A stretch of 27,338 nucleotides of DNA from the IMG/VR virus record IMGVR_UViG_2585427755_000009; one strand, 5' to 3'. The notes beneath the pieces were generated by a model, which did no database searches, was not told where the DNA came from, and worked only from the letters and a program-made list of their open reading frames with translations. Of the stretch, positions 1 to 17,366 are shown piece after piece. Position 1 is the first letter of the stretch. Every line of letters starts with the position of its first letter. A program made the position numbers and the translations under genes. Origin of the DNA: a virus. Lineage: Duplodnaviria > Heunggongvirae > Uroviricota > Caudoviricetes.

Positions 1-1053
1 TTACGGGGTAATGCCAACCGCTGCCGCCACTTTGTCGCCACTTGGCAGCGTTGCCAGAGGATTGAAACGGAGCGCCGTTTCCAGATGATCCGGTGCCAGA
101 TGTGCGTAACGCATAGTCATTTTTATATCGTGGTGTCCGAGAATTTTTTGTAAGGCCAGAATGTTTCCACCCGACATCATGAAGTGCGCCGCAAACGTAT
201 GGCGCAGAACGTGTGTGAGTTGACCGCGAGGGAGCACGATAGACGTTTTTTCCATCACGGATAAAAATTGAAAATAGCAGTCTGTGAAGAAATTGAACCC
301 ATCAAGCGCCATGATCTCTTCGTAAAGCTCTTTACTGATAGGGATGCTTCTGTTTTTCTTCCCCTTCGTTCTGACAAAGGTAATTCGGTATTTGGTCACC
401 TGTGAGCGGGTAAGATTTACGGCTTCACGCCAGCGTGCGCCTGTGCTTAAGCATATCTTAACTACCAGTGCCAGAATTGGGTCCTGACGTTTGCAATCAG
501 CCAGCAATTCAACAATCTGCTCATGGGTAAGCCATGCCATCTCTTTTTCTGCGATGGTGAATTTTCGCATGTTCTCCAGTGGGTTCGGATACGACCATTC
601 GCCCAGACGGGATAGTTCGCTAAAAACACTACTTAGATAGCTTTGCTCCAGGTTAATGGTGACCGGGCTTGCTCCTTTCTTCCATTTCTCGCTGAAGTAG
701 ATCTCGCCTGTCAGGCGTTTATCTCGATAGTGGGCAAACATTTTAGAGGTGAGATCGGTTGCAAGAGGATTGCCCAGAGCGTCAACCATCAACAGCAATT
801 TGTCATAGACATGCTGCCCAGCTGTCAGAGATTTACCATGTAGTTTGAACCATAGCTCAACCACGTCTTTCAGTGTTCGACGATCCACTGATTCACCCAG
901 CCAGGGCTTTGCTTCGGTTTCTTCCATCGTGTGGCGCTCAAAAGCCAGTGCTTCGCCTTTGGTGACGAATTGTTTACGCACACGACGCCCACTTCGTCCG
1001 GCGGGGTAACATTCGCAAAGCCATTTCCCAGTGGTGAGTTTTCGTACTGCCAT
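1..1053 (-). CDS. int: Tyrosine site-specific integrase (P2/186 Int family)
   Basis: ORF terminates at TAA (rc of window pos 1-3). C-terminal catalytic region typical of tyrosine recombinases (LTHVLRHTFAAHF...HHDIKMTMRYAHL). Start placed at ATG 1051-1053, preceded by GGAGGG with 7-nt spacer; N-terminus MAVRKL... resembles my recollection of 186 Int. The longer in-frame ORF to 1209 has no RBS. Confidence 0.9.
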   Translation of the reverse strand: MAVRKLTTGKWLCECYPAGRSGRRVRKQFVTKGEALAFERHTMEETEAKPWLGESVDRRTLKDVVELWFKLHGKSLTAGQHVYDKLLLMVDALGNPLATDLTSKMFAHYRDKRLTGEIYFSEKWKKGASPVTINLEQSYLSSVFSELSRLGEWSYPNPLENMRKFTIAEKEMAWLTHEQIVELLADCKRQDPILALVVKICLSTGARWREAVNLTRSQVTKYRITFVRTKGKKNRSIPISKELYEEIMALDGFNFFTDCYFQFLSVMEKTSIVLPRGQLTHVLRHTFAAHFMMSGGNILALQKILGHHDIKMTMRYAHLAPDHLETALRFNPLATLPSGDKVAAAVGITP

Positions 1054-1241
1054 AAAAAATGCCCTCCAGTAGAGAGCATTTTCACTGTATGTATAACCAG
1101 TGTCAATGTATGAAATCCTACGACCATACATCTCACTGAAGCCATAATTAAGTTGGCTATTCTTTTTGCTATGTGAGCATGTAACTTTTGCGGTTAACCT
1201 GCGGCTCATTTTTATTTTAGACGCAGATATAAAAGCAAAAG

Positions 1242-2367: not shown

Positions 2368-2431
2368 TAGACGTCTATTTTCGCAATAAGACGCTGAGTT
2401 CGATTTTGCGATAAGTTCGGAGTTGAAAACC

Positions 2432-2941
2432 ATGTTTGATTACCAAGTTTCCAAACATCCACATTTTGATGAAGCCTGTCGTGCATTCGCACTGCGCCAC
2501 AATCTGGTGCAACTGGCAGAACGTGCGGGCATGAATGTGCAGATTCTGCGGAACAAGCTGAACCCAGCTCAACCTCATTTATTAACCGCACCAGAAATCT
2601 GGCTGCTTACCGATCTGACTGAAGATTCAACGTTGGTAGATGGTTTTCTGGCACAGATTCATTGTCTGCCATGTGTACCGATTAATGAGGTAGCAAAAGA
2701 GAAACTGCCGCATTACGTCATGAGCGCAACTGCAGAGATCGGGCGTGTTGCAGCAGGTGCGGTATCTGGTGATGTAAAAACTAGTGCCGGTCGTCGTGAT
2801 GCTATCAGCAGCATTAACTCTGTAACACGACTGATGGCGCTGGCTGCTGTTTCATTGCAGGCCCGTTTACAGGCTAATCCTGCGATGGCGAGTGCAGTTG
2901 ATACCGTGACTGGCCTCGGTGCTTCATTCGGTTTGCTGTGA
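2432..2941 (+). CDS. cII: CII-like lysogeny-establishment transcriptional activator (186 CII family)
   Basis: Start at ATG 2432 with GGAG 9 nt upstream gives 169 aa, the length of 186 CII. Lies immediately downstream of apl as in 186. Confidence 0.75.
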
Positions 2942-2948
2942 GGTGCTT

Positions 2949-3245
2949 ATGCTGACGAAAGAACCATCATTTGCATCGCTGCTGGTAAAACAAAGCCCGG
3001 CAATGCACTACGGTCACGGCTGGATCACGGGTGAGGATGGAAAACGCTGGCATCCATGTCATTCACAAGATGAATTGCTGTCTGAATTGACCACGAGGAA
3101 ACGGAGAAAGTCCAAATGTATGCGGCAGAAAGTGAAGTGGTTTATCAGTTTCGTTACAGAGGGGAGAGTTATTCAGTACCTGAAGATGATTTGCTCTGTT
3201 GCTATCCGTCATTGTCGGGCGATGGCAGTTACTTTTTCACGTTAA
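2949..3245 (+). CDS. Hypothetical early protein (3' extent uncertain)
   Basis: ATG 2949 with GAGGTG RBS overlapping the cII stop. The N-terminal 55 aa look protein-like; the 3' third overlaps the next ORF in another frame and looks low-complexity. Confidence 0.35.
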   Translation: MLTKEPSFASLLVKQSPAMHYGHGWITGEDGKRWHPCHSQDELLSELTTRKRRKSKCMRQKVKWFISFVTEGRVIQYLKMICSVAIRHCRAMAVTFSR

Positions 3246-3340
3246 AGGATGGGACGTTTTTACGGGGAGAGCAGGTTAAAGAGACGATACGAAAAAATGT
3301 ATCTCCTCTTGAGCGTTACCGTAAGAACAAAGAACGATAG
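3116..3340 (+). CDS. Hypothetical early protein
   Basis: 74-aa ORF; ATG 3116 preceded by GGAGAAAG. Composition looks like a real small acidic protein (MYAAESEVVYQFRYRGESYSVPEDD...). Confidence 0.5.
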   Translation: MYAAESEVVYQFRYRGESYSVPEDDLLCCYPSLSGDGSYFFTLKDGTFLRGEQVKETIRKNVSPLERYRKNKER

Positions 3341-3362
3341 CTGCGTTTGGGGGATATGAAGT

Positions 3363-3704
3363 ATGGCAATTAATGGCGCTGCAGCAACTGTTCCATTAAG
3401 CCCCGGTGAACGCCTGAATGGACTTAATCACATTGCAGAGTTAAGGGCGAAAGTTTTTGGCCTGAATATTGAGTCAGAGCTTGAGCGGTTTATTAAAGAT
3501 ATGCGTGATCCACGGGATGTTAATTATGAACGAAATAAACGAGCACTGGCTGCTATATTCTTTATAGCAAAAATTCCAGCTGAACGTCATAGCATCAGCA
3601 TTAATGAGCTGACCACTGACGAAAAGCGGGAGTTGATTAAAGTAATGAATCATCTTCGTGCAGTGGTGAGCTTATTTCCCAGACGGCTAGCCATGCCGAA
3701 TTAA
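3363..3704 (+). CDS. Hypothetical early protein
   Basis: 113-aa ORF; ATG 3363 with GGGGGA RBS 8 nt upstream; within the early rightward operon. Confidence 0.65.
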   Translation: MAINGAAATVPLSPGERLNGLNHIAELRAKVFGLNIESELERFIKDMRDPRDVNYERNKRALAAIFFIAKIPAERHSISINELTTDEKRELIKVMNHLRAVVSLFPRRLAMPN

Positions 3705-3771
3705 CCAATTAATGAAATTCATGGCGTAAACCCGCCGGGCATTCCTTTATCTAAATTCAGGAGAATTGATT

Positions 3772-4005
3772 ATGCGTAATATTGAAACCCTCTCGACTAA
3801 AACCGGACCGGATGACGCAGGACTTAATATTTTACTGACAGAGGCTCGTCTGGAAGAACGTCGGGCAAGCGCTGAAGCAATGGCAGCTCGCCTTGATAGC
3901 CTTGCGTGCCATATCACATCCCGCCAGCTAAACCACGTTGAAGCGGCTGAACTGCTGCGTGTGGCAGCTGAAGCAATCCAGAACGAAGCGCAGGAGATCC
4001 ACTAA
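3772..4005 (+). CDS. Hypothetical early protein
   Basis: ATG 3772 preceded by AGGAG (8-nt spacer); the track start at 3766 is TTG. Its stop overlaps the start of the next gene (TAATG). Confidence 0.6.
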   Translation: MRNIETLSTKTGPDDAGLNILLTEARLEERRASAEAMAARLDSLACHITSRQLNHVEAAELLRVAAEAIQNEAQEIH

Positions 4006-4232
4006 TGGCTGATGCAATGGATCTCGTACAGCAGCGCGTTGAAGAAGAACGCCAGCGTCATATCCGTGCTGCCCGTGCCAAAACGCCGGGCGTGTCCCGC
4101 GTGCTTTGCATTGAGTGTGAAGCGCCAATTCCGCCAGCACGCCGCCGTGCCATTCCGGGTGTGCAGCTTTGCATTACCTGTCAGGAAATCGCAGAGCTGA
4201 AAGGCAAACATTACAACGGAGGTGCTGTATGA
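4005..4232 (+). CDS. TraR/DksA-family C4 zinc-finger protein
   Basis: 75 aa with CxxC-(17)-CxxC (CIECEAPIPPARRRAIPGVQLCITCQ), the usual phage TraR/DksA-like arrangement; translationally coupled on both sides. Confidence 0.7.
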   Translation: MADAMDLVQQRVEEERQRHIRAARAKTPGVSRVLCIECEAPIPPARRRAIPGVQLCITCQEIAELKGKHYNGGAV

Positions 4233-5086
4233 GCACCATCCTGAAATGGGCGGGAAATAAAACCGCCATTATGTCCGAACTGAAAAAGCATCTTCCTGCT
4301 GGCCCGCGACTGGTTGAACCTTTCGCGGGTTCCTGTGCAGTGATGATGGAGACGGAGTACCCCAGCTATCTTGTTGCGGATATTAATCCTGATTTAATCA
4401 ACCTCTATAAAAAGGTTGCTGCTGATTGTGAATCGTTTATATCTCGCGCCAGAGTTTTATTTGAGATCGCAAACAGGGGGGTGGCTTATTACAACATAAG
4501 GCAGGAGTTTAATTACTCAACTGAAATTACTGATTTCATGAAAGCGGTATATTTCCTGTATCTCAATCGTCACGGTTACCGTGGTTTATGTCGCTATAAC
4601 AAGAGCGGGCATTTCAACATTCCCTACGGTAATTATAAAAATCCGTATTTCCCTGAAAAAGAAATTCGCGCATTTGCAGAAAAAGCCCAGCGAGCAACGT
4701 TTATCTGCGCCAGCTTTGATGAAACGCTGGCGATGTTGAAGGCGGGGGATGTGGTGTATTGCGATCCGCCGTATGACGGTACGTTTTCCGGCTATCACAC
4801 TGATGGTTTCACTGAAGATGACCAGTATCACCTGGCATCCGTTCTTGAACATCGGTCATCAGAAGGACATCCGGTCATTGTTTCTAACAGTGATACATCC
4901 CTGATCCGTTCGCTGTATCGCAATTTTACTCACCACTATATCAAGGTAAAACGCAGCATCGGTGTGGCAGCTGGCGAGGGTAAATCAGCAACAGAAATCA
5001 TTGCTGTTTCCGGGCCGCGCTGCTGGGTGGGATTTGATTATTCGCGTGGCGTGGATAGTTCTGCCGTGTACGGAGTACGTGCATGA
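4229..5086 (+). CDS. dam: DNA adenine-N6 methyltransferase (Dam family, GATC-type)
   Basis: Catalytic DPPY motif ([10 protein letters not shown]) and N-terminal AdoMet-binding region (LKWAGNK...EPFAGSCAV). Start ATG 4229 overlaps the previous stop (ATGA). Confidence 0.85.
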
Positions 5087-7497
5087 GCCATGCCGATATG
5101 AACAACTGCTGCGGCTTTAACGAGGCTGCCGCAGCGTTCTCATGGAACAGCCCGAAAAAGGCCATTAACCCTTATCTGGACCCGGCGGAAGTTGCGCCGG
5201 TTTCTGCGCTTTCAAACCTGATCGCTCTGTACGCTGCCGATAACGAACAGGAACACCTGCGCCGCGAGGCACTGAGTGATCAGGTCTGGGAGCGTTATTT
5301 CTTTAATGAATCCCGTGATCCTGTCCAGCGCGAAATGGAGCAGGATAAGCTCATTAGTCGGGCAAAGCTGGCGCATGAGCAGCAGCGTTTTAATCCAGAT
5401 ATGGTCATTCTGGCGGACGTCAATGCCCAGCCTTCCCATATCAGCAAGCCGCTGATGCAACGTATTGAATACTTCAGCAGCCTGGGCAGGCCAAAGGCTT
5501 ATTCCCGCTATTTGCGTGAGACGATTAAGCCATGTTTGGAGCGACTGGAGCATGTACGCGACAGCCAGCTATCTGCATCTTTTCGTTTTATGGCAAGCCA
5601 TGTAGGGCTGGACGGCCTGCTGATTCTGCCTGAAATGAGTCAGGATCAGGTGAAACGCCTGTCTACTCTTGTCGCTGCGCATATGAGCATGTGTCTTGAT
5701 GCCGCTTGTGGTGATTTGTACGCCACCGATGATGTTAAGCCAGAAGAAATCCGCAAGACATGGGAAAAGGTGGCAGCAGAAACCCTGCGACTGGATGTTA
5801 TCCCGCCTGCGTTTGAGCAACTTCGTCGGAAAAGAAACCGCCGTAAACCCGTGCCCTATGAACTCATTCCGGGTTCGCTGGCGCGTATGTTGTGCGCCGA
5901 TTGGTGGTACCGGAAATTATGGAAGATGCGTTGCGAATGGCGGGAAGAGCAGTTGCGTGCTGTTTGCCTGGTCAGCAAAAAAGCATCTCCCTATGTCAGC
6001 TATGAAGCCGTGATGCATAAACGTGAGCAGCGCCGTAAGTCGCTGGAGTTTTTCCGTTCTCATGAACTGGTGAACGAAGACGGCGACACGCTGGACATGG
6101 AGGATGTGGTAAACGCCAGCAGCAGCAACCCGGCGCATCGCCGCAATGAGATGATGGCCTGTGTTAAAGGTCTGGAGCTTATCGTAGAAATGCGCAGTGA
6201 CTGTGCCGTTTTCTACACTATCACCTGTCCGTCGCGTTTCCATTCCACGCTCAATAACGGCAGACCAAACCCGACCTGGACAAACGCGACGGTAAGACAA
6301 AGCAGCGATTATCTGGTCGGCATGTTTGCTGCATTTCGTAAGGCTATGCACAAAGCCGGGTTGCGCTGGTATGGCGTGCGGGTGGCTGAACCGCATCATG
6401 ACGGCACAGTTCACTGGCACCTGTTGTGTTTCATGCGCAAAAAAGACCGCCGCGCCATTACTGCATTGTTGCGTAAGTTTGCCATCCGTGAAGACCGCGA
6501 GGAGCTGGGCAATAACACGGGGCCACGCTTTAAGTCTGAGCTGATAAACCCGCGCAAAGGTACGCCAACAAGCTACATCGCGAAATACATCAGTAAGAAC
6601 ATTGACGGGCGTGGTCTGGCTGGCGAGATCAGCAAGGAAACGGGTAAATCCCTGCGTGATAACGCTGAATACGTTAATGCCTGGGCGTCTCTGCATCGTG
6701 TTCAGCAATTCCGCTTCTTTGGTATTCCGGGGCGTCAGGCTTACCGTGAACTTCGCTTGCTGGCTGGTCAGGCGGCAAGGCAACAGGGTGACAAAAAAGC
6801 AGGTGCGCCGGTACTGGATAACCCGCGTCTTGATGCCATTCTGGCTGCTGCTGATGCTGGTTGTTTTGCCACCTACATCGTGAAGCAGGGCGGCGTACTG
6901 GTTCCCCGTAAATATCACCTCATCAGAACCGCTTATGAAATCAACGAAGAGCCGACCGCCTATGGCGATCACGGCATTCGTATTTATGGCATCTGGTCAC
7001 CCATTGCAGAGGGCAAGATCTGCACTCATGCAGTGAAGTGGAAAATGGTTCGTAAAGCCGTTGACGTTCAGGAGGCGGCAGCCGACCAGGGCGCTTGCGC
7101 CCCTTGGACTCGTGGCAATAACTGTCCCCTTGCTGAAAATTTGAACCAACAGGAGAAAGATAAATCAGCTGATGGGGACACCAGAACGGATATTACCCGC
7201 ATGGATGACAAGGAGTTGCACGATTACCTGCACAGTATGAACAAAAAAGAGCGCCGGGAACTGGCTGCAAGGTTACGTCTGGTGAAACCGAAACGGCGTA
7301 GAGACTACAAACAGCGAATTACAGACCATCAACGACAGCAGCTCGTCTATGAACTGAAGTCCAGAGGATTTGATGGCAGCGAGAAAGAGGTCGATTTACT
7401 CCTTCGCGGCGGCAGTATTCCATCAGGAGCAGGCTTGCGTATCTTCTATCGGAACCAGCGTCTGAAGGAAGATGATAAGTGGCGGAACCTGTATTAA
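5083..7497 (+). CDS. repA: Replication initiation endonuclease (P2 gpA / 186 RepA rolling-circle family)
   Basis: 804-aa protein after dam (ATGA overlap); contains the HUH-type motif [11 protein letters not shown] and the downstream YIAKYISK tyrosine region typical of P2 A protein. Confidence 0.9.
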
Positions 7498-7589: not shown

Positions 7590-7609
7590 TACTGTAAATA
7601 TAAACAGTG
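7590..7609 (+). promoter_or_regulatory. LexA (SOS) box overlapping the promoter of the tum/dinI-like operon
   Basis: TACTGTAAATATAAACAGTG contains CTGT-N8-ACAG (7592-7607) with an AT-rich centre, about 45 bp upstream of the AGGAGG RBS and ATG 7650. Confidence 0.6.
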
Positions 7610-7649: not shown

Positions 7650-7838
7650 ATGCAGGACTATTTTTTGGAGTCTTTGAAGCTCCAGCGCATTGATTTTTTT
7701 CTTAAGCTTGTAGCGGCTAGTGAGTGTAGTGATGAAGAGAAGGGGCTGGCTCTGCAGTGGGTTTCTGAATTAACTGATGAACTCATGGCAAAAATCAGAA
7801 CCCACGAATACAACCGCTCAATGGATGTCATCAGTTGA
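7650..7838 (+). CDS. Small SOS-induced protein, candidate Tum-like antirepressor
   Basis: 62-aa ORF with strong RBS (AGGAGG) immediately downstream of the LexA box. Position matches 186 tum; the sequence itself was not recognised. Confidence 0.5.
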   Translation: MQDYFLESLKLQRIDFFLKLVAASECSDEEKGLALQWVSELTDELMAKIRTHEYNRSMDVIS

Positions 7839-7849
7839 GGTGACTTTTT

Positions 7850-8083
7850 ATGCGCATTGAAATAATGATCGATAAAGAGCAGAAGATTAGCCAGTCTACC
7901 CTGGACGCCCTTGAATACGAGCTTTACCGCAATCTGCGCCCCCTGTATCCAAAAACGGTAATTCGCATCCGCAAAGGTAGCTCTAACGGTGTGGAACTGA
8001 CCGGACTGCAACTGGACGAAGAAAGGAAGCAAGTGATGAAAATTATGCAGAAAGTGTGGGAAGACGACAGCTGGCTGCATTAA
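7850..8083 (+). CDS. DinI-family protein
   Basis: MRIEIMIDKE...DALEYELYRNL...KIMQKVWEDDSWLH aligns by eye with E. coli DinI (MRIEVTIAKT...DALAGELSRRI...EILQETWESADDWF). RBS GAGGTGA; second gene of the LexA-box operon. Confidence 0.8.
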   Translation: MRIEIMIDKEQKISQSTLDALEYELYRNLRPLYPKTVIRIRKGSSNGVELTGLQLDEERKQVMKIMQKVWEDDSWLH

Positions 8084-8268
8084 GAAACGTTGCCCCTAGG
8101 AGGATTCATTCTAATGGGGGCTAGTTTGGGCAACGAGTGAAATAAGGCGTAAGGTGGGCGGTCATTTTTATAAGTGATCGTCCGCTTTGTGCCAGAAGCG
8201 AACGTTTCTTCTGCTATCTTTCGTCAATTAGCGAATGGCAGACTAATTTGCAACGGATAATCTGAATT

Positions 8269-8295
8269 TTGTTAGATTATGGGTATTCCTATAAT
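8269..8295 (+). promoter_or_regulatory. Putative sigma70 promoter for the KAP NTPase cargo gene
   Basis: TTGTTA (8269-8274), 15-bp spacer, consensus TATAAT (8290-8295), in the AT-rich leader upstream of the KAP gene. Confidence 0.3.
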
Positions 8296-8404
8296 ATTTA
8301 CCAATAATAACCTTACAATGTACACTACCGATTGAGTTTTCCATAGTTGGCCTTTGGCTCTACTTACCATCTATGTTTATGTATTTTATCAAAATGGACT
8401 AAAA

Positions 8405-10297
8405 ATGCACAATACGTACATCAAAGACTATCTAGAATATTACCTTAGCCTTAAAACTGAACCTCAATACGCCATTATGCTTAAAGGTGCTTGGGGATCA
8501 GGTAAAACTTGGTTCATTGAACGAGTTCTTGAAGAATATAGGCAGAAACATTCAGAGTTCAAATTTCTAAAAGTGAGCTTGTATGGCGTCAACTCTATTG
8601 AGCAGATTGAAGATGAGTTCTATCGTCAACTGCATCCTGTCCTATCAAACAAAGCCCTTATCTTTGGTGCAAATGTACTAAAAAATACGCTTAAGGCTAC
8701 TTTCAAGATCGATCTTAATGGCGATAATAAATCTGACGTAGATGTCAATAGCAATGTTCCCACCATTAATCTTAGCGACTTTACTAGAAAACCAGATGGT
8801 TTTGTGCTGGTCTTTGATGATGTCGAGAGAGCTGGTGTAGATTTACCAATCTTATTTGGATATATAAATCACTTTGTGGAGGTAAACGGATACAAAGCGA
8901 TCTTGGTTGCCAATGAAGATGAAATAATCAATAGAGAAAAGCGAATAAATAATGATGATGAGAAATCTCGCAATGAATACATGAGAACAAAAGAAAAGCT
9001 AGTAGGTAAAACATTTGAAGTAACGTCAGATTTACATAGTGCTTGTAAGATTTTTTTGAACGTAATTAGTAGTTTGCATGTTGCTAATATATTTAAAGAA
9101 GATATGCAGACAATAGAGGACCTCTATGTGTCAGCGAATTATAATAATCTAAGACACTTGAGGCAGTTCTTTCTCGATGTACAACGAATTATTTCCCTTT
9201 TGGGAGATAAATATGTAAGTAACGATGAATTTATAAGGGTGTTTTTTCATCAATTGTTAATTTTTTCGATGGAGTACCGGGGAGGGAATCTTAGTTACGA
9301 GGATTTCAATTCAATCGGCAATGTTAATTATGGTATGTTTTTGGGTAAAGAACGTGTCAAAAGTAAGTATGACATGATTGTCGAGAAATATTCGTCTCCT
9401 GTATTAACCGAGAAGTTACTGGATGGTGCGTCTTGGAGAGAACTAATCTGTGATGGAAAGGTAACGGGTGATCTTCTTGCTCAGTTGGATATTACGCGAT
9501 TTTTTAGAAGCAGCGATTCCCAAGCATGGGAGTATTTGTGGAACTATAGAGAACTAAATGAAACTATGCTTTATGAGCAGTACGCTATTGCTAAGGATAA
9601 CCTGTTTTCAGGTAAGATCACTTCCTTAGGTGAACTTCTGATGACAGCGAGTATTTTGCTGGAAATGGCGAAAGAAGGTCTAACAACAGATGATGTTCAT
9701 GATCTCATAAATGAGACAAAACAGAATATAAATAATTATTATAATAGACTTAGAGCTGAAGATGTACATAAGGAATATGCGCAAACACATTATAACGAAT
9801 TAAGGGCATGGCGTGGTTTAGGTTTTCTTGACAGGGATAGTGATGACTTTAAGCTCATTATTGAACATATTAAAATAGAAAGGAAGAAACGGTTTGATGA
9901 TTCAATTTCGGAATTTGCATTGCAGTTCAGAGATGAGTTACAAAGGGGAAAATTATCGTTGTTATCTGAATTGAGTCATTCTAATAATAGACAGTTAAAT
10001 CTTCATGATGTACCTTTTTTACACTTAGTTCCTGCTGATGTTTTCATTGAAAGCTATAGGAAACTTGATCCAGTTATCATGAGGAAACTGGCATTTAGCT
10101 TACGGAGTCGTTATTCTGATGCGGATGCCAGAACTAGACTGATTGAAGAATATAACTGGTTGATCAACCTAAAAGATATAGCTGTAGATTTCATTAAAAA
10201 CTCAGAAAATAGCGTTTTTCAGGTCTTTCACGTAAAATTTTTCATTGACTATGTACTAACTGACGCAATCAAATTCTTTAGTGATGGGACAAATTAA
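8405..10297 (+). CDS. KAP-family P-loop NTPase
   Basis: Walker A GAWGSGKT close to the N-terminus and a Walker B-like hhhhDDVER (VLVFDDVER), the arrangement of KAP NTPases. About 630 aa, AT-rich relative to core phage genes. ATG 8405; the track start at 8354 is TTG. Confidence 0.8.
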   Translation: MHNTYIKDYLEYYLSLKTEPQYAIMLKGAWGSGKTWFIERVLEEYRQKHSEFKFLKVSLYGVNSIEQIEDEFYRQLHPVLSNKALIFGANVLKNTLKATFKIDLNGDNKSDVDVNSNVPTINLSDFTRKPDGFVLVFDDVERAGVDLPILFGYINHFVEVNGYKAILVANEDEIINREKRINNDDEKSRNEYMRTKEKLVGKTFEVTSDLHSACKIFLNVISSLHVANIFKEDMQTIEDLYVSANYNNLRHLRQFFLDVQRIISLLGDKYVSNDEFIRVFFHQLLIFSMEYRGGNLSYEDFNSIGNVNYGMFLGKERVKSKYDMIVEKYSSPVLTEKLLDGASWRELICDGKVTGDLLAQLDITRFFRSSDSQAWEYLWNYRELNETMLYEQYAIAKDNLFSGKITSLGELLMTASILLEMAKEGLTTDDVHDLINETKQNINNYYNRLRAEDVHKEYAQTHYNELRAWRGLGFLDRDSDDFKLIIEHIKIERKKRFDDSISEFALQFRDELQRGKLSLLSELSHSNNRQLNLHDVPFLHLVPADVFIESYRKLDPVIMRKLAFSLRSRYSDADARTRLIEEYNWLINLKDIAVDFIKNSENSVFQVFHVKFFIDYVLTDAIKFFSDGTN

Positions 10298-10583
10298 TAT
10301 TTTGTTGATTAACATAGGGATATATTATGAGAAGTACTAGGGATGGTCAGCAACATTATTAATGTCCGCTTCGCTCAAAGCAGGCTTTGTGCTTTGTAAG
10401 TACGTATGTTTCGTTTATCAAGCGATCATTCGGTTACTGGATTTCAGTTCCCCCGTAAGTGCATGACTATGCCGCATGAGATCGCATGATCGTTTGCGGA
10501 TCGTTTTTGCTAAGGCCCGCCAGAACTGGTGGGATTTTGCGTAGATCATGCACCTGCATGAAAACCGCTACATAAAGCGGGCA

Positions 10584-10602
10584 GGCGTGGCGGGGATACG
10601 AT
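10584..10602. other. Putative cos (cohesive-end) core of a P2/186-type phage
   Basis: GGCGTGGCGGGGATACGAT matches about 14/19 (P2) and 16/19 (186) of the cos sequences as I recall them. It lies in a 360-bp GC-richer non-coding island between two AT-rich cargo genes, where P2-family cos is expected (between the A side and Q). The comparison is from memory. Confidence 0.3.
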
Positions 10603-10659
10603 TGCGCGCGCAAGCTAAAGTGGCAATAATGAGCATGTAAGGTAAAATTCAAGGAGATT

Positions 10660-11814
10660 ATGATGTATATCTGCGAAAGTCACATTGTTGAATCAAATAT
10701 AAAAAAACTAATTTTTTCGCAAAATATACGAGGTATTTGTGCTTTTTGTTGTGCAGATACTGTTTGTTTAGATACTGATTCTTCAGAAGTACGTAATTTG
10801 TTGAAAGCTATTCTGAGATATCATTATGATGAAGTCGATTACAATACTCATTTTGGAGGGGAGTATTACCCGAGTTTTCTATTGGAAGATGATTTTATTT
10901 TCACCAAGGATATACAGGAGCATGATGAATCTTTTGGGGAACTCGATAGCGAATTGTGGGATATGGCATTTGATAGTGAGGGAATAAATATTTATGCAGG
11001 CTATGGATCTGATGGTCTATATAATACGCCATATATGTCTATCAGAAATGCACATCAGCCATTTTTAGATTCTCTGTCAAAACAGCTTTCAGAAAAGAAT
11101 TACCATGATTTTGAAGGTGAGCTAAGAAGTATTATAAAAGGTTATGGTGATATTTTTTCGAAGATAATAGAAGGAAGTTCTGTGGTATATAGAGCCAGAG
11201 TTGGGACTGCTGGCTATAAAACAGCACTTAGGGGATTTAGCCGTGAAGGAAAGAAAATATTTGTTCCATTTAAAGATAAGGAAATAGGAGCCGTGCCACC
11301 ACTAAAGGCTACTGCTGGCAGGGCTAATAGAGCAGGCGTTTCTTACCTTTATTGTGCTACAGATAGTTATACTGCAATTGCGGAAGTTCGACCTCATCCA
11401 ACAGATGTTGTTTCAATTGGTAAATTTAGAGTTGCAAAAGCATTAAAGGTATTCGATTTTTCTTATCCTAATTTTTTAGAGTTTATTGAGAGTGATGAAA
11501 GTTTATTATCCATGATACCATATGCAAAGATGGCAGGTATTTTTAATACTGCAACTCCACCTTCCTTAGAAGGAAGATATAGTGTGTCCCAACTAATATC
11601 TGATTGTATAAGGAAAGAGGGGTATGATGGTATACAATTTTCAAGTACAGTTGGTAAAGGTAAGAACTTGGTTGTTTTTAATCCTTCATGTATGGAATTT
11701 ATAGATGGTTCATCAAAAGTAATAGAAATTGACAAGGTTCAGTATATTTACGAGGAAAAGCAGGTTGTTGGTATGAATGATCAATGGGAGATTTATTACG
11801 ATGAAGTTGAATAA
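10660..11814 (+). CDS. RES-domain protein with a Cys-rich N-terminal extension (putative NAD+-targeting toxin/Abi effector)
   Basis: C-terminal half carries the three RES landmarks: GRANRAG (Arg), YLYCATDSYTAIAEVRPH (Glu) and DGIQFSSTVGKGKNLVVF (Ser). N-terminal 200 aa has CxxH...CxFCCxxxxC. AGGAG RBS; AT-rich. Confidence 0.8.
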   Translation: MMYICESHIVESNIKKLIFSQNIRGICAFCCADTVCLDTDSSEVRNLLKAILRYHYDEVDYNTHFGGEYYPSFLLEDDFIFTKDIQEHDESFGELDSELWDMAFDSEGINIYAGYGSDGLYNTPYMSIRNAHQPFLDSLSKQLSEKNYHDFEGELRSIIKGYGDIFSKIIEGSSVVYRARVGTAGYKTALRGFSREGKKIFVPFKDKEIGAVPPLKATAGRANRAGVSYLYCATDSYTAIAEVRPHPTDVVSIGKFRVAKALKVFDFSYPNFLEFIESDESLLSMIPYAKMAGIFNTATPPSLEGRYSVSQLISDCIRKEGYDGIQFSSTVGKGKNLVVFNPSCMEFIDGSSKVIEIDKVQYIYEEKQVVGMNDQWEIYYDEVE

Positions 11815-11821
11815 GTGATAA

Positions 11822-11857
11822 TAGCCCCATTGAGAATTTTCATTTCTCTTGGGGCTA
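11822..11857. terminator. Stem-loop, likely bidirectional terminator between the convergent RES-domain gene and portal gene
   Basis: TAGCCCCA / TGGGGCTA outer stem with inner GAGAA / TTCTC stem and 7-nt loop, in the 52-bp gap between convergent stop codons. Confidence 0.45.
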
Positions 11858-11866
11858 ACTTAAATA

Positions 11867-12898
11867 TTAATCAAAGCAATATGAATTGAATGTAATTAAA
11901 TCTTCACCTAGCCAATCATTGACCTCCTCCATCCTTTTTTGTAAAGGTAGCAACTCGTTTCGAACAAACACATTAGCAGCCTTCTCCACATCCCCAAATC
12001 CCCCGACATTATTTGGCATTATCCCCATCATCTGTGGCGGCACGCGGTGTGCTGCCATCATGTCATCGCGACTAACATTTTTGATATTCAGAAATTCATC
12101 CTTCGCCGCGACTTCTGACAACGGGATAATCTGAAGTCCGTCCTTTTTGCCGTTCGGCGAGTACATAAACAGGTTGCGGAAGTTGCCCGGACCTTTGGCG
12201 CTTTTCATCGCATTACGGAGGTTGTTCACATCTTCCTGGTTCTGCGCGGCATCGGTCATGTACATGATGAAGCCTGCATGACTACCGTTAATGTAATACT
12301 TCCGGCGGAACAGCGTGGCGGACTCGTTGAGCAGGGCTGACGGAATGGCAGAAAGATAACCGGGCAGGCCGTAGATCTCCTGGTTGATATCCGGTTCCAT
12401 CAGGTGAAAAATGCTGCCTTTCGTGAACTGATACGGCTGTGTAGTCATGCCGTATTGCACAAACCAGTAGGTATCCAGGTCTAACCCGCGTCGGGTGTAT
12501 TTTGCCAGAGCAGGCTCAAGGGCGATAACTTCACCGAAGCGGTTCGTGCGTTTCTCCAGGTAGGCGTTACCAAATACCAGATAGTCCTGCACAAAACGTG
12601 AAAAAGCCTGCTGGCTGAGCAGCGGGTGAGGGATGTAGGTACTGGTCAGAATGTTGCATTTCACCGCAATTGGTGAGCTGTGATGCACGGCGGCGCGGAA
12701 GGTTCGTGCCAGTCCGTCAAAGCTGACGGGCGGCTCATACCAGCGATCCATCTGTACGCATTCCACATAGTCCAGCAGTTCACGGCGGTCCAGAACAGGA
12801 ACGGGATCGCCAAAGCTGAATGCTTCGGCTGAAGTTTGGCTTTTATGCTTGAGCTGATTCGTCGCCGCAGCGCGGTTTTTCTTACTCTTTCCCATCAA
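11867..12898 (-). CDS. Q: Portal protein (P2 gpQ family)
   Basis: 343 aa, transcribed leftward together with the terminase; size and position are those of P2 Q. Confidence 0.9.
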   Translation of the reverse strand: MMGKSKKNRAAATNQLKHKSQTSAEAFSFGDPVPVLDRRELLDYVECVQMDRWYEPPVSFDGLARTFRAAVHHSSPIAVKCNILTSTYIPHPLLSQQAFSRFVQDYLVFGNAYLEKRTNRFGEVIALEPALAKYTRRGLDLDTYWFVQYGMTTQPYQFTKGSIFHLMEPDINQEIYGLPGYLSAIPSALLNESATLFRRKYYINGSHAGFIMYMTDAAQNQEDVNNLRNAMKSAKGPGNFRNLFMYSPNGKKDGLQIIPLSEVAAKDEFLNIKNVSRDDMMAAHRVPPQMMGIMPNNVGGFGDVEKAANVFVRNELLPLQKRMEEVNDWLGEDLITFNSYCFD

Positions 12899-14661
12899 AA
12901 AATCTCCACAATATTGCTGGTATTGGCGGACTCGCCCTGCAGCGGTTCGTTAAACAGTGCGTGCATTGTTGCCCAGGCCAGATCGGCGTGGCTGGCTTCT
13001 TCGCTGCGGCTGGCTTCATAGGTTGGGCGGTTGCCACTGGCGGTGGTGGCGCGACGGATTGCCATGAATGACTGCGCAATGTCGGTGTGCCCGGCGTCAA
13101 ACTCCAGACGGCGGTGGCTGATAATGTCGTAGGCCTTGAGTACCAGGGCGTTTTTAACGTTGGGGTTGTAGACGAACTCCCGGACGGCAGGAAAGAACGC
13201 TTTCACGTTCTCGTAAACCCCGTGACCGACGCCGGTTGAGTCGATACCTATGTATGTCACGTTGTACTGTTCAGTCAGTTTTTTGATGGCGTCAGCCTGG
13301 GCGCGAAAGTCCATCCCGCGCCACTGGTGACGCTCAAGAATGCGGAACTTACCGCCCGGCACGGCTGGCGGAGCCACCACCACGCACCCGGCGCTGTCGC
13401 CGTTCTGCGTACCTTTTGCCGGGTCATAACCGATCCACACCTCGCGCCAGCCAAACGGGCGCAGCGCCAGTGCATGAAAGTCAGTCCAGACTTCCCAGCT
13501 GTCCACCATGCACGCCTGCAGCTCGCTGAGCGGGAACACGGATGCGAGATCGTCCACAAACTCACACATCAGCAGGTTCTGGTATTCGTCCGGGCTGTAC
13601 TCCATGCGCAGCTGGTCGAGGTCGAACAGGTTACAGCCGCCGCGCACCGCATCTTCCACGGTGACTATCTGGCGGTACTGCCCGTCTGCGCACAGCAGGC
13701 CGGGGGCCAGATTGTTGTGGGACAGGTCGATGTCCACCTTATCGGCTTTGTTGCGCCCACGATTGAACAGCGCACCGGACCAGAACGGATAAGCACTGTG
13801 AGTCAGGCTGGATGGCGTGGAAAAATAGGTCTGTCGCCATTTCTTGTGAATCGCCATACCGGAAGCCACTTTGCGCAGCTCCTGGAATTTCGGGATCCAG
13901 AAATATTCATCCAGATACAGGTTGCCGTGGTAACTCTGGGCCGTGCGGGCATTGGTACCGAGGAAATACAGTGTGGCCCCGTTGGGAAGCACCATCGGAT
14001 CGCCTTTCAGCTCCACTTCCACTTCTTTGGCGAAGTCGATGATGTACTGCTTAAAAACGTGGGCCTGTGCCTTGCTGGCGGAAAGGAAAATCTGGTTACG
14101 TCCGGTCAGCAGGGCGTCAATCAGGGCTTCACGGGCAAAATAGAAGGTCGCGCCGATCTGGCGTGACTTCAGCAGGTTTCGGATGCGGTTGGTTTTTCCG
14201 GCTTCCCACCAGTGGCGCTGGTAGTTGAACATGGAGGAATGGAAGATTTCTTCCAGCTTCTCAATTTGTTCATCGGTGAAAACGTTCTTTTCCGGCTGAC
14301 GGCGCGGGCCTTTGTTGCGGTTGGCGACGTTAGGGTTTAAGTCGGCTTCGTTGCCGCCATTGTTAAACTTGCCGATCCGCGCGTGGCGCTCAGACTGGCG
14401 CGCCAGTAGGTCAATTTCTTTAAAGTCTTTCCCTTCTTTGTGCTCCTTCATAATGAGCTGGCAGTAGCGTGCGGCGGTGGTGAGCTGCATCTGATCCAGC
14501 GGCCCATAGTCACCCCACTTATCGCGTTTTTTCCAGCTGTGAACGGTTGCAACTTTCTCGCCCAGCATTTCAGCAATGCGGGCTACGCGGTATCCCTGAA
14601 AGTACAGCAGCATGGCCTGCCGACGGGGATCGAGATCTGCGGGTGTCAGTGTGGTGTTCAT
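12895..14661 (-). CDS. P: Terminase large (ATPase) subunit (P2 gpP family)
   Basis: 588-aa protein overlapping the portal gene start by 4 nt; P2 P-like size and position. Confidence 0.9.
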   Translation of the reverse strand: MNTTLTPADLDPRRQAMLLYFQGYRVARIAEMLGEKVATVHSWKKRDKWGDYGPLDQMQLTTAARYCQLIMKEHKEGKDFKEIDLLARQSERHARIGKFNNGGNEADLNPNVANRNKGPRRQPEKNVFTDEQIEKLEEIFHSSMFNYQRHWWEAGKTNRIRNLLKSRQIGATFYFAREALIDALLTGRNQIFLSASKAQAHVFKQYIIDFAKEVEVELKGDPMVLPNGATLYFLGTNARTAQSYHGNLYLDEYFWIPKFQELRKVASGMAIHKKWRQTYFSTPSSLTHSAYPFWSGALFNRGRNKADKVDIDLSHNNLAPGLLCADGQYRQIVTVEDAVRGGCNLFDLDQLRMEYSPDEYQNLLMCEFVDDLASVFPLSELQACMVDSWEVWTDFHALALRPFGWREVWIGYDPAKGTQNGDSAGCVVVAPPAVPGGKFRILERHQWRGMDFRAQADAIKKLTEQYNVTYIGIDSTGVGHGVYENVKAFFPAVREFVYNPNVKNALVLKAYDIISHRRLEFDAGHTDIAQSFMAIRRATTASGNRPTYEASRSEEASHADLAWATMHALFNEPLQGESANTSNIVEIF

Positions 14662-16715: not shown

Positions 16716-17366
16716 ATGAGCCTGAGTCCCGCACGGCAGCATCGCCTGCGCGTTCAGGCTGAACAGGCCGCCCGTGAGGGCGGCAGCGTTCGCCACGCGT
16801 CGGGCTATGACCTGATGCTGCTGCAACTGGCGGAAGACCGCCGCCGTCTCAAGGGCGTTCAGTCCACGGTGAAAAAAGCGGAAATAAAGGTGGAGCTGCT
16901 GCCGAAATATGCCGACTGGGCAGAGGGCGTCCTGGCTGCCGGAGGCGCTCAACAGGATGACGTGCTGATGTACGTGATGCTGTGGCGCATTGATGCCGGA
17001 GATTATGCCGGGGCGCTGGAGATCGGGCGTCATGCCCTGCGTCATGGCTGGGTGATGCCGCTGGGTAACCGCAACGTGCAGACCGTGCTGGCAGAGGAAA
17101 TGGCAGACGCGGCGCAGAGCGCAACGCTTGCCGCCACCGGCTTTGATGCCGATCTGTTGCTGCAGACGCTGGAGCTGACAGACGGTCTGGATATGCCGGA
17201 CCAGTCACGGGCGCGTCTGCATAAAGCGATTGGCGCTGTCCTGAGTGAAAGCAACCCGGCTTCCGCCCTTAATCATCTCAACCATGCGTTACAGCTCGAT
17301 CCCCGCTGTGGCGTGAAAAAAGACAAACAGCAGCTGGAGCGCAGACTGCGCAATGACAGCCGCTGA
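16716..17366 (+). CDS. M: Terminase small (endonuclease) subunit (P2 gpM family)
   Basis: 216 aa directly after N, as for P2 M. Confidence 0.85.
   Translation: MSLSPARQHRLRVQAEQAAREGGSVRHASGYDLMLLQLAEDRRRLKGVQSTVKKAEIKVELLPKYADWAEGVLAAGGAQQDDVLMYVMLWRIDAGDYAGALEIGRHALRHGWVMPLGNRNVQTVLAEEMADAAQSATLAATGFDADLLLQTLELTDGLDMPDQSRARLHKAIGAVLSESNPASALNHLNHALQLDPRCGVKKDKQQLERRLRNDSR

Follow-up and report, generated by a model that had tools for sequence, protein, structure and literature searches.

A conserved module, very probably cos, separates two independently exchanging cargo slots in a Fels-2-type prophage

In the gap between two cargo genes of a P2-family prophage lies a conserved 153-bp module (10458–10610) that, judged by homology, is very probably the cos site of this Fels-2-type (Felsduovirus-like) element; the mapping experiment behind the assignment was carried out on E. 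coli HS phage 1, which is 95–96% identical. Both the cos type and the cos-proximal defence hotspot between genes A and Q are already published, and the feature is a correct call of a known one. What the comparison adds is incremental: the A–Q hotspot resolves into two independently exchanging slots anchored on the module, an architecture of TGCATG repeats, hairpin and palindrome is common to helper phages and satellites, and a GATC pair is conserved in the clade.

An exact cos position fixes the ends of the packaged genome, with the RES gene at the extreme left and the KAP gene at the extreme right. With it, both cargo slots can be delimited correctly, which aids the annotation of anti-phage genes in Fels-2-type prophages, and it aids the design of cosmids or transducing particles for this terminase type. 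Such prophages are very common, with a match in roughly 1,280 of 5,426 complete E. coli genomes.

A complete prophage with cargo on both sides of the gap

The window, that is, the whole 27,338-nt stretch of DNA that was analysed, is a complete P2-family prophage whose genes follow the P2/186 order according to Pfam and PADLOC searches. From the left, it carries an integrase (1–1209, minus strand), a Dam protein of the D12 class of N6-adenine methyltransferases (4169–5086, plus strand; PF02086, E = 9e-76), the replication protein gpA (5083–7497) and a DinI/Tum-like protein (7850–8083). Annotation of P2 and 186 puts the P2-family replication origin within gene A. The left cargo slot is filled by a KAP-family P-loop NTPase (8354–10297, plus strand; PF07693, E = 5e-20; PADLOC candidate PDC-S49, E = 3e-156), for which the RefSeq start corresponds to 8405. 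The right slot, between cos and Q, holds a 384-aa RES-domain protein (10660–11814, plus strand; PF08808, E = 3e-18), existing annotation for which is RES family NAD+ phosphorylase.

Beyond the cargo are the portal gene Q (11867–12898, minus strand; PF04860), the large terminase gene P, encoding the gpP ATPase (12895–14661, minus strand; PF03237/PF17289/PF06056), and gene M for the small/endonuclease terminase subunit gpM (16716–17366, plus strand; PF05944), together with the scaffold and capsid genes O and N. The packaging genes Q, P and M are all intact in the Pfam search. Between the convergent RES and Q genes stands a bidirectional hairpin (11823–11858; fold −22.2 kcal/mol on the plus strand and −20.5 on the minus strand, z = −3.8 and −3.2).

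The cohesive-end core and its flanks align with known cos sites

The 19-nt cohesive-end core GGCGTGGCGGGGATACGAT, or cosN (10584–10602, plus strand), occurs once in the window. The original prediction had singled it out as similar to the P2/186 cohesive ends and had suggested that it marks cos, a reading that is borne out. The window was aligned with sequences made by joining the annotated genome ends of 186, P2, PSP3 and P4. The core is identical to the cos of 186 and PSP3 at 16 of 19 positions and to that of P2 and P4 at 14 of 19, and its flanks are homologous as well: the 40 bp to the left match 186 and PSP3 at 33 positions, P4 at 29 and P2 at 27, and the 8 bp to the right match 186 and PSP3 at seven (6–7 of 8 across 186, P2 and P4). 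The flanks that characterize the P2/P4 cos region, AAAACC..AAGCGGGC on the left and GCGCGC on the right, are present here. The site has gpA/DinI and cargo on one side and Q/P on the other, in the same order as in P2 and 186, and the same element encodes a cognate P2-type terminase (gpP and gpM) and portal.

Closer relatives narrow the comparison further. In E. coli HS phage 1, which is inducible with mitomycin, cos was mapped by read-start analysis after induction and with PhageTerm to 5'-GGCGTGGCGGGGATACGAG-3' (NC_009800, 926016–926034; Zund et al. 2021, PMC8008629, Suppl. Table 4). When this region is compared with the window, GGCGTGGCGGGGATACGAG is the homologous 19-mer, set in a backbone that is 95–96% identical on both sides and a cos block that is 90% identical. 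It differs from GGCGTGGCGGGGATACGAT by one base, at position 19, where the window has T for G, a minority variant found in 9 of 155 loci. Identity to the core of SEN8 is likewise 18 of 19; in that phage, ggcgtggcggggatacgag bears a cos annotation from its authors, and the break in the genome record falls precisely on the predicted nick.

Read as cos, the module would be nicked by the P2-type terminase (gpP and gpM) with a stagger of 19 nt, on the top strand 5' of 10584 and on the bottom strand after 10602, leaving 5' overhangs. The packaged linear genome would then start with GGCGTGGCGGGGATACGAT-RES-Q-P and end with DinI-KAP-GCATGA repeats-AAAGCGGGCA. That the similarity is instead a remnant or a chance match, in a prophage that packages elsewhere or is defective, seems to us extremely improbable. 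Three mismatches to the 186 cos do fall inside the 19-mer, but the same class of 19-mer is the mapped cos of an inducible phage that is 95–96% identical, strong purifying selection acts on the block across about 155 loci, and all packaging genes are intact.

The core and its surroundings also place the site among the known types. In 186 and PSP3 (Eganvirus), a 19-nt 5' cohesive end, GGCGTGGCGGGGAAAGCAT, likewise lies with the tum/DinI region on one side and the portal gene on the other, and these phages share the TGCGCGC right flank, the upstream TGCATG repeats, a CGCCAG..CTGGCG hairpin and TCATGCAnnTGCAT. They differ at core positions 14, 16 and 17 (ATACGAT here, AAAGCAT there), and 186 has no GATC in the region and no cargo between cos and the portal gene, where 196 bp, including 24 of the terminator tW, separate the two. 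The Felsduovirus type (HS phage 1, SEN8, Fels-2, SopEPhi and RE-2010, with GGCGTGGCGGGGATACGAG) has the same module at 87–95% identity, with the GATC pair, the hairpin and the palindrome, and also carries cargo on both sides of cos; the difference lies in the last cohesive-end base and the one that follows, ..GAT|T here as opposed to ..GAG|C there. P2 and P4 (GGCGAGGCGGGGAAAGCAC) have in common with the window a 19-nt G-rich 5' overhang, AAAACCG...AAGCGGGC on the left, GCGCGC on the right and upstream TGCAT repeats, and their cos is described as a conserved region of 55 bp (Ziermann & Calendar 1990, cited in PMC9594776 and PMC3931495). P2 cos also adjoins a defence-gene hotspot (PMC9122126). 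P2 differs in its 14/19 core identity, in old and tin, which are transcribed away from cos, in having no GC hairpin evident by eye and in having no GATC pair.

A sharply bounded module of backbone DNA

The module was delimited with 56 loci gathered with a gpA query from contigs representing one genome per species, to which we added 120 IMG/VR contigs carrying the core; 155 loci were scorable after dereplication. Over 44 genome loci and roughly 110 viral contigs, with many Enterobacterales represented, 10458–10610 (about 54.5% GC) is conserved at 73–95% identity and has sharp edges at both ends, the flanks being unrelated between loci. The nearest relatives, Fels-2, SopEPhi, RE-2010, SEN8 and Klebsiella and E. 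coli prophages, are 87–95% identical over 10458–10613 and share nothing on either side. Relative to the cut, the conserved length is markedly uneven, with about 126 bp to the left as opposed to about 8 bp to the right. From left to right, the module consists of three repeats, GCATGATC-N5-AGGATCG, a hairpin, a palindrome, AAAACC, ..AAAGCGGGCA, the 19-mer and (T/C)GCGCGC.

These boundaries account for the composition of the gap. As had been predicted, the 362 bp between the cargo genes (10298–10659) are less AT-rich than either neighbour, with 45.0% GC compared to 35.0% in KAP and 34.5% in RES. The excess is limited to 10458–10613 (54.5%, close to the 53.7% of the phage late region), and the rest of the gap is cargo-like, at 38.8% GC in 10298–10457 and 34.8% in 10614–10659. 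The GC island is thus backbone DNA, and its apparent richness in GC comes only from the contrast with the AT-rich, horizontally exchanged cargo slots on either side. The segment 10298–10457 (plus strand) is the 3' flank of the KAP cargo and lies outside cos: it is not conserved in the clade alignment and travels with KAP in E. coli genomes, with 10371–10457 also common to locus L063.

A minus-strand ORF of 61 aa (10467–10652) was rejected as spurious, having no Pfam match and a start within the non-conserved flank of the RES module. Some records annotate a 'hypothetical protein' across cos. An Rfam scan of 9800–11200 gave no credible RNA family, its sole match being a snoRNA at E = 0.67, and the IHF consensus has no match within the gap.

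Repeats and symmetry around the cut

Three GCATGA repeats had been noticed on the left of the module, and they are found there at 10461, 10474 and 10484. Two further copies escaped the original prediction, GCATGA at 10556 and the inverted TCATGC at 10546, which brings the count to five in 103 bp compared to 20 in the whole window on both strands (corrected P ~5e-6). In their extended form (G/C)GCATGA, the three direct repeats (10459–10466, 10472–10479 and 10482–10489, plus strand) show at least 90% column conservation across 151 distinct blocks. The fourth and fifth copies form a palindrome, TCATGCA-NN-TGCATGA (10546–10561), which is followed by AAAACC and conserved in the clade; its 2-nt spacer is free, being GG, CC or TG.

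The same arrangement extends well beyond the clade. Equivalent TGCATG triplets recur in P2, 186, P4 and three P4-like satellites with unchanged spacing to cos, and the palindrome reads TCATGCAACTGCATTAAAACC in 186 and similarly in P4 and the satellites. Three TGCATG repeats, a GC hairpin and TCATGCAnnTGCATTAAAA precede cos in 186, P4 and the three satellites, which are divergent and come from E. coli, and P2 has most of these elements. Because they are conserved across P2, 186, P4 and P4-like satellites, the GCATGA repeats are probably terminase-recognition elements, analogous to cosB. P4-like satellites are described as having little in common with their helpers apart from the packaging signal, or cos (PMC9122126, PMC9594776).

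At the cut itself, a partial two-fold symmetry spans 10577–10610, with GCGGGCA|GGCGT on the top strand and GCGCGCA|ATCGT on the bottom. It holds at 9 of 12 positions here, at 8 of 12 in the commonest clade variant and at 6–7 of 12 in P2, 186 and P4. This is the pattern to be expected if the nicking enzyme is symmetric, and it accounts for conservation reaching no further than about 8 bp beyond the cohesive end on the right. Recognition would be asymmetric in layout: specificity would reside in the roughly 126 bp on the left, with their five GCATGA/TGCAT motifs (the palindrome TCATGCAnnTGCATGA among them), and about 8 bp would suffice right of the cut, mirroring the left nick context GCGsGCr|nnCGT. 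A weak inverted repeat abutting the nick, CCGC-N8-GCGG (10565–10580; fold z = −1.2), was discarded as a conserved structure, its third pair being an A–C mismatch in 129 of 151 relatives.

The cos of lambda (cosQ-cosN-cosB) offers a general parallel in its staggered-nick cosN with partial two-fold symmetry and its flanking multi-repeat recognition elements. The lambda overhang is 12 nt long as opposed to 19 nt here. The terminase-binding repeats of lambda (cosB) are found next to its terminase genes, on the left-end side, whereas the conserved repeats of the present module lie on the opposite, right-end side, with about 8 bp conserved on the side of Q and P.

A conserved GATC pair that does not track the phage Dam

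The gap had been credited with four GATC sites within 68 bp, and these are located at 10480, 10488, 10499 and 10544, with a fifth at 10424. They form the densest cluster in the window, where the average is 3.3 per kb (Poisson P = 9e-5 per 68-bp span, about 0.04 when corrected for the number of spans). Two of the four coincide with a direct repeat that had also been pointed out, GATCGTTT at 10488 and 10499. This pair, 11 bp apart within 10488–10502, is present in about 96% of the 155 dereplicated loci while the spacer between the two sites varies (GTTTG, CAAAA); one site overlaps a GCATGA repeat and the other lies within AGGATCG. The remaining two are lineage-specific and belong to the same E. 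coli sub-lineage. GATC at 10480–10483 occurs in 20 of 66 loci with a Dam gene upstream of gpA (Dam+) and in 1 of 19 without one (Dam−), and GATC at 10544–10547 in 22 of 66 and 0 of 19, respectively; most relatives carry GTCATGCA at the latter position.

The phage does encode a genuine Dam (4169–5086), and the cluster had been proposed to couple packaging or gene expression to methylation state. The comparison lends this no support: only two of the four sites are conserved, and these are kept equally in Dam+ (64 of 66) and Dam− (18 of 19) loci. Most likely, the conserved pair belongs to a sequence recognized by a protein and does not serve to sense the phage's own Dam.

A wider form of the idea is a control like that of P1 pac, in which the cluster would tie recognition or cleavage of cos to Dam methylation state, through host or phage Dam and possibly via SeqA, and so couple packaging to replication or timing. 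P1 packages by the headful mechanism with PacA and PacB, its pac has seven GATC-bearing hexamers, and its processing is reportedly regulated by adenine methylation. The window may resemble it in having short GATC-containing repeats clustered beside a packaging cleavage site, four sites within 68 bp of which two are conserved, in a phage that encodes its own Dam. Moreover, one helical turn separates the sites at 10488 and 10499, which equal the GCATGA motifs in conservation while the intervening bases vary, and the two extra sites occur almost only in Dam+ loci (20–22 of 66 compared to 0–1 of 19).

Nevertheless, we regard such control as unlikely. Unlike at P1 pac, there is no correlation with the phage Dam in the conserved pair, and the closest cos homologues have no GATC at all: the cos regions of P2, 186, P4 and the satellites lack the pair and any other GATC, and these elements package without it. 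Dam+ relatives with other cos flanks (L030, L041 and L052) also have zero GATC there, and the site at 10488 merely extends a GCATGA repeat (GCATGATC). The association of the extra sites with Dam is confounded by phylogeny and counts effectively as a single evolutionary event, because it is confined to one E. coli sub-lineage. We give little credence to the specific version in which the pair would be a methylation or SeqA checkpoint, with terminase acting only on fully methylated and not on freshly replicated DNA, and in which the E. coli sub-lineage would have added 10480 and 10544 with its own Dam; if true, it would amount to a P1-pac-like control transplanted into a cos phage.

P4-like satellites with the ATACGA-type cos were sought as a test of whether the GATC pair is needed for packaging, but all 120 core-bearing IMG/VR loci are phages, and the divergent E. 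coli satellites L190–L192 carry a 186-like core, GGCGTGGCGGGGAGAGCAT, with no GATC. The satellite comparison supports the TGCATG architecture only and says nothing on the GATC pair.

A hairpin ahead of cos and a promoter-like site behind it

Between the direct repeats and the palindrome stands a GC-rich hairpin, GCCCGCCAGAACTGGTGGG, followed by a T tract (10515–10538, plus strand; found in a terminator scan; fold −15.9 kcal/mol, z = −2.6), with arms GCCCGCCAG-NN-CTGGCGGGC and then CTTTTG. Over the 151 distinct blocks, the stem is 83–99% paired, the loop is variable (GAAC, GTTC, GGAA) and the CTTTTG tail is conserved. In 186, P4 and the satellites, whose upstream genes run towards cos, this place is taken by GC hairpins with other sequences; inspection by eye shows no evident counterpart in P2, where transcription of old and tin leads away from cos.

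We favour an intrinsic terminator as the most likely reading of 10515–10538, one that would end rightward SOS, early and cargo (DinI/KAP) transcription ahead of cos and thereby shield it. A dyad protein-binding site would fit as well as a terminator, given that the stem shows almost no compensatory change; the stem (10515–10534) is almost invariant, and so little true covariation neither proves nor disproves an RNA structure. On the other side of cos, a promoter scan found a promoter-like GTGGCA-17-TAAAAT that is followed by an AAGGAG ribosome-binding site and the RES ATG (10620–10662, plus strand). This segment is conserved only in the RES-bearing loci L062–L064 and is part of the RES cargo module.

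Two cargo slots that exchange independently

KAP occupies the classical tin/old position and RES the slot between cos and Q, and the two slots swap independently. The full KAP–cos–RES arrangement is found in three complete E. coli genomes, at 99.4% identity; carriers with this identity over 7850–12100 are E. coli KE47, NRZ14408 and LT599825. KAP (about 92% nucleotide identity) and the cos block recur in at least 37 further E. coli genomes, in which the match on the KAP side stops at around 10611 and other genes come next; NGF1, for instance, has a 223-aa hypothetical protein in the right slot beside KAP. RES, in turn, is found in six E. coli genomes and three IMG/VR contigs. It is accompanied by this KAP in three genomes, by an unrelated KAP-family NTPase in two (blastp best E = 0.8, not significant) and by a 141-aa minus-strand ORF in one (L064), and the left slot is empty in L195 and L197.

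The original prediction had taken KAP and RES to be independent and not one operon, on the grounds that cos would place them at opposite ends of the linear genome. Their independence is supported, by separate assortment and by the terminator-like hairpin between them; the position of the cut itself proves little about an operon, because the two genes are adjacent in the prophage and in the circular form and a transcript could still cross cos. That the two are parts of one defence system or operon straddling cos is suggested by their shared plus-strand orientation, 362 bp apart, and by a left-slot KAP-family NTPase, from two unrelated sequence families, in five of the six RES-bearing E. coli genomes. 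We consider it very unlikely and reject a functional pairing: KAP keeps company with different right cargo in the genomes counted above, RES occurs without any KAP in L064, L195 and L197, the KAP1 and KAP2 pairings are not independent (L063 matches 10371–12100 at 97.5% identity), and the hairpin and cos lie between the genes, with RES preceded by a promoter-like site and a ribosome-binding site of its own.

RES had further been predicted to be an insertion between cos and Q, which is correct, albeit ordinary, as this stretch is longer than 600 bp in 107 of 123 related loci. The A–Q (gpA–gpQ) defence hotspot of P2-like phages is described as cos-proximal in portions of Rousset et al. 2022 (PMC9122126) and PMC13586616. 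KAP, as a PDC-S49 candidate, and RES fall in that same variable region, and its low GC and many alternative arrangements recur here. Where those portions describe one hotspot, we find two slots, with the one between cos and Q occupied in 87% of Fels-2-type loci. The cos module may serve as the shared homology through which the two slots are swapped. RES is always paired with the cos variant ..ATACGAT|TGCGCGC, which puts the right-hand exchange point at the final base or two of the cohesive end. Across loci, the left gap ranges from 35 to 3682 bp and the right from 168 to 3524 bp; both slots are occupied in 53 of 107 loci of the clade, and Fels-2, SopEPhi, SEN8 and HS all have genes on both sides of cos.

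Recombination breakpoints around cos

Nine of the 155 dereplicated loci scored for the cos module carry a minority cos variant (..ATACGAT|TGCGCGC, window 10600-10611), with the remaining loci reading ..ATACGAG|CGCGCGC. This variant always accompanies the RES module, both in the RES-bearing E. coli loci L062-L064 and in L195 and L197, where the left slot is empty. As the RES module is constantly found with this form, we place the right-hand recombination breakpoint at the final base or two of the cohesive end.

On the left-hand side, the partner of RES in two genomes is a KAP-family NTPase of 706 aa, other than the KAP of the window and without significant blastp similarity to it (best E = 0.8). 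In one RES-paired case, L063 (E. coli K56-43-un), this second NTPase occupies positions 2408-4528. L063 shares 97.5% identity with the window over 10371-12100, from which we infer an exchange of the left cargo whose breakpoint is at 10371, 87 bp beyond the cos block.

P4-like satellites have the same sharp right-hand edge at cos+26 as phages: the P4 psu-cos junction is matched in 2,440 of 5,426 E. coli genomes, with the match typically ending at cos+26. The core of the divergent E. coli satellites (L190-L192) is 186-like (GGCGTGGCGGGGAGAGCAT), and the cargo adjoining it is different and defence-like (AAA ATPase + HNH, P-loop NTPase).

Cargo genes and their predicted expression

For the KAP NTPase (window 8354-10297), PADLOC gives a match to its candidate system PDC-S49 (E = 3e-156); the start of the gene in RefSeq is the ATG equivalent to 8405 rather than the TTG at 8354. 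Upstream, a near-consensus LexA box (CTGTAAATATAAACAG, window 7592-7607) precedes a 62-aa open reading frame (ORF; 7650-7838) and a DinI/Tum-like gene (7850-8083), an arrangement similar to the p95-tum-orf97 operon of 186, which is under LexA control. In the event of transcriptional read-through, KAP could be induced by the SOS response.

The RES-domain protein is encoded by a single 384-aa gene (window 10660-11814), and no gene for an Xre-type antitoxin adjoins it. The N-terminal ~210 residues of the protein are unmatched in Pfam and, despite the defence-hotspot location, the protein has no match in PADLOC. RES and Q are convergent, and the two genes are separated by a strong bidirectional hairpin (AGCCCCATTGAGAA...TTCTCTTGGGGCT, window 11823-11858; -22 and -20 kcal/mol), probably a terminator common to both and the counterpart of tQ/tW of P2/186.

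Probable annotation and assembly anomalies

The minus strand has a 61-aa ORF that runs across cos (window 10467-10652), and in several public records the cos block is annotated as encoding a 'hypothetical protein' (L063 4865-5029 is one example); these are probably spurious gene calls. The metagenome contig L141 (IMGVR_UViG_3300011853_000021) carries two head-to-head cos modules, at 3448-3472 (-) and 6697-6721 (+), in the order P-Q-cos-DinI | DinI-cos-Q-P. The two copies are alike, not identical, and the doubled cos is most likely an artefact of assembly, either a chimera or an inversion.
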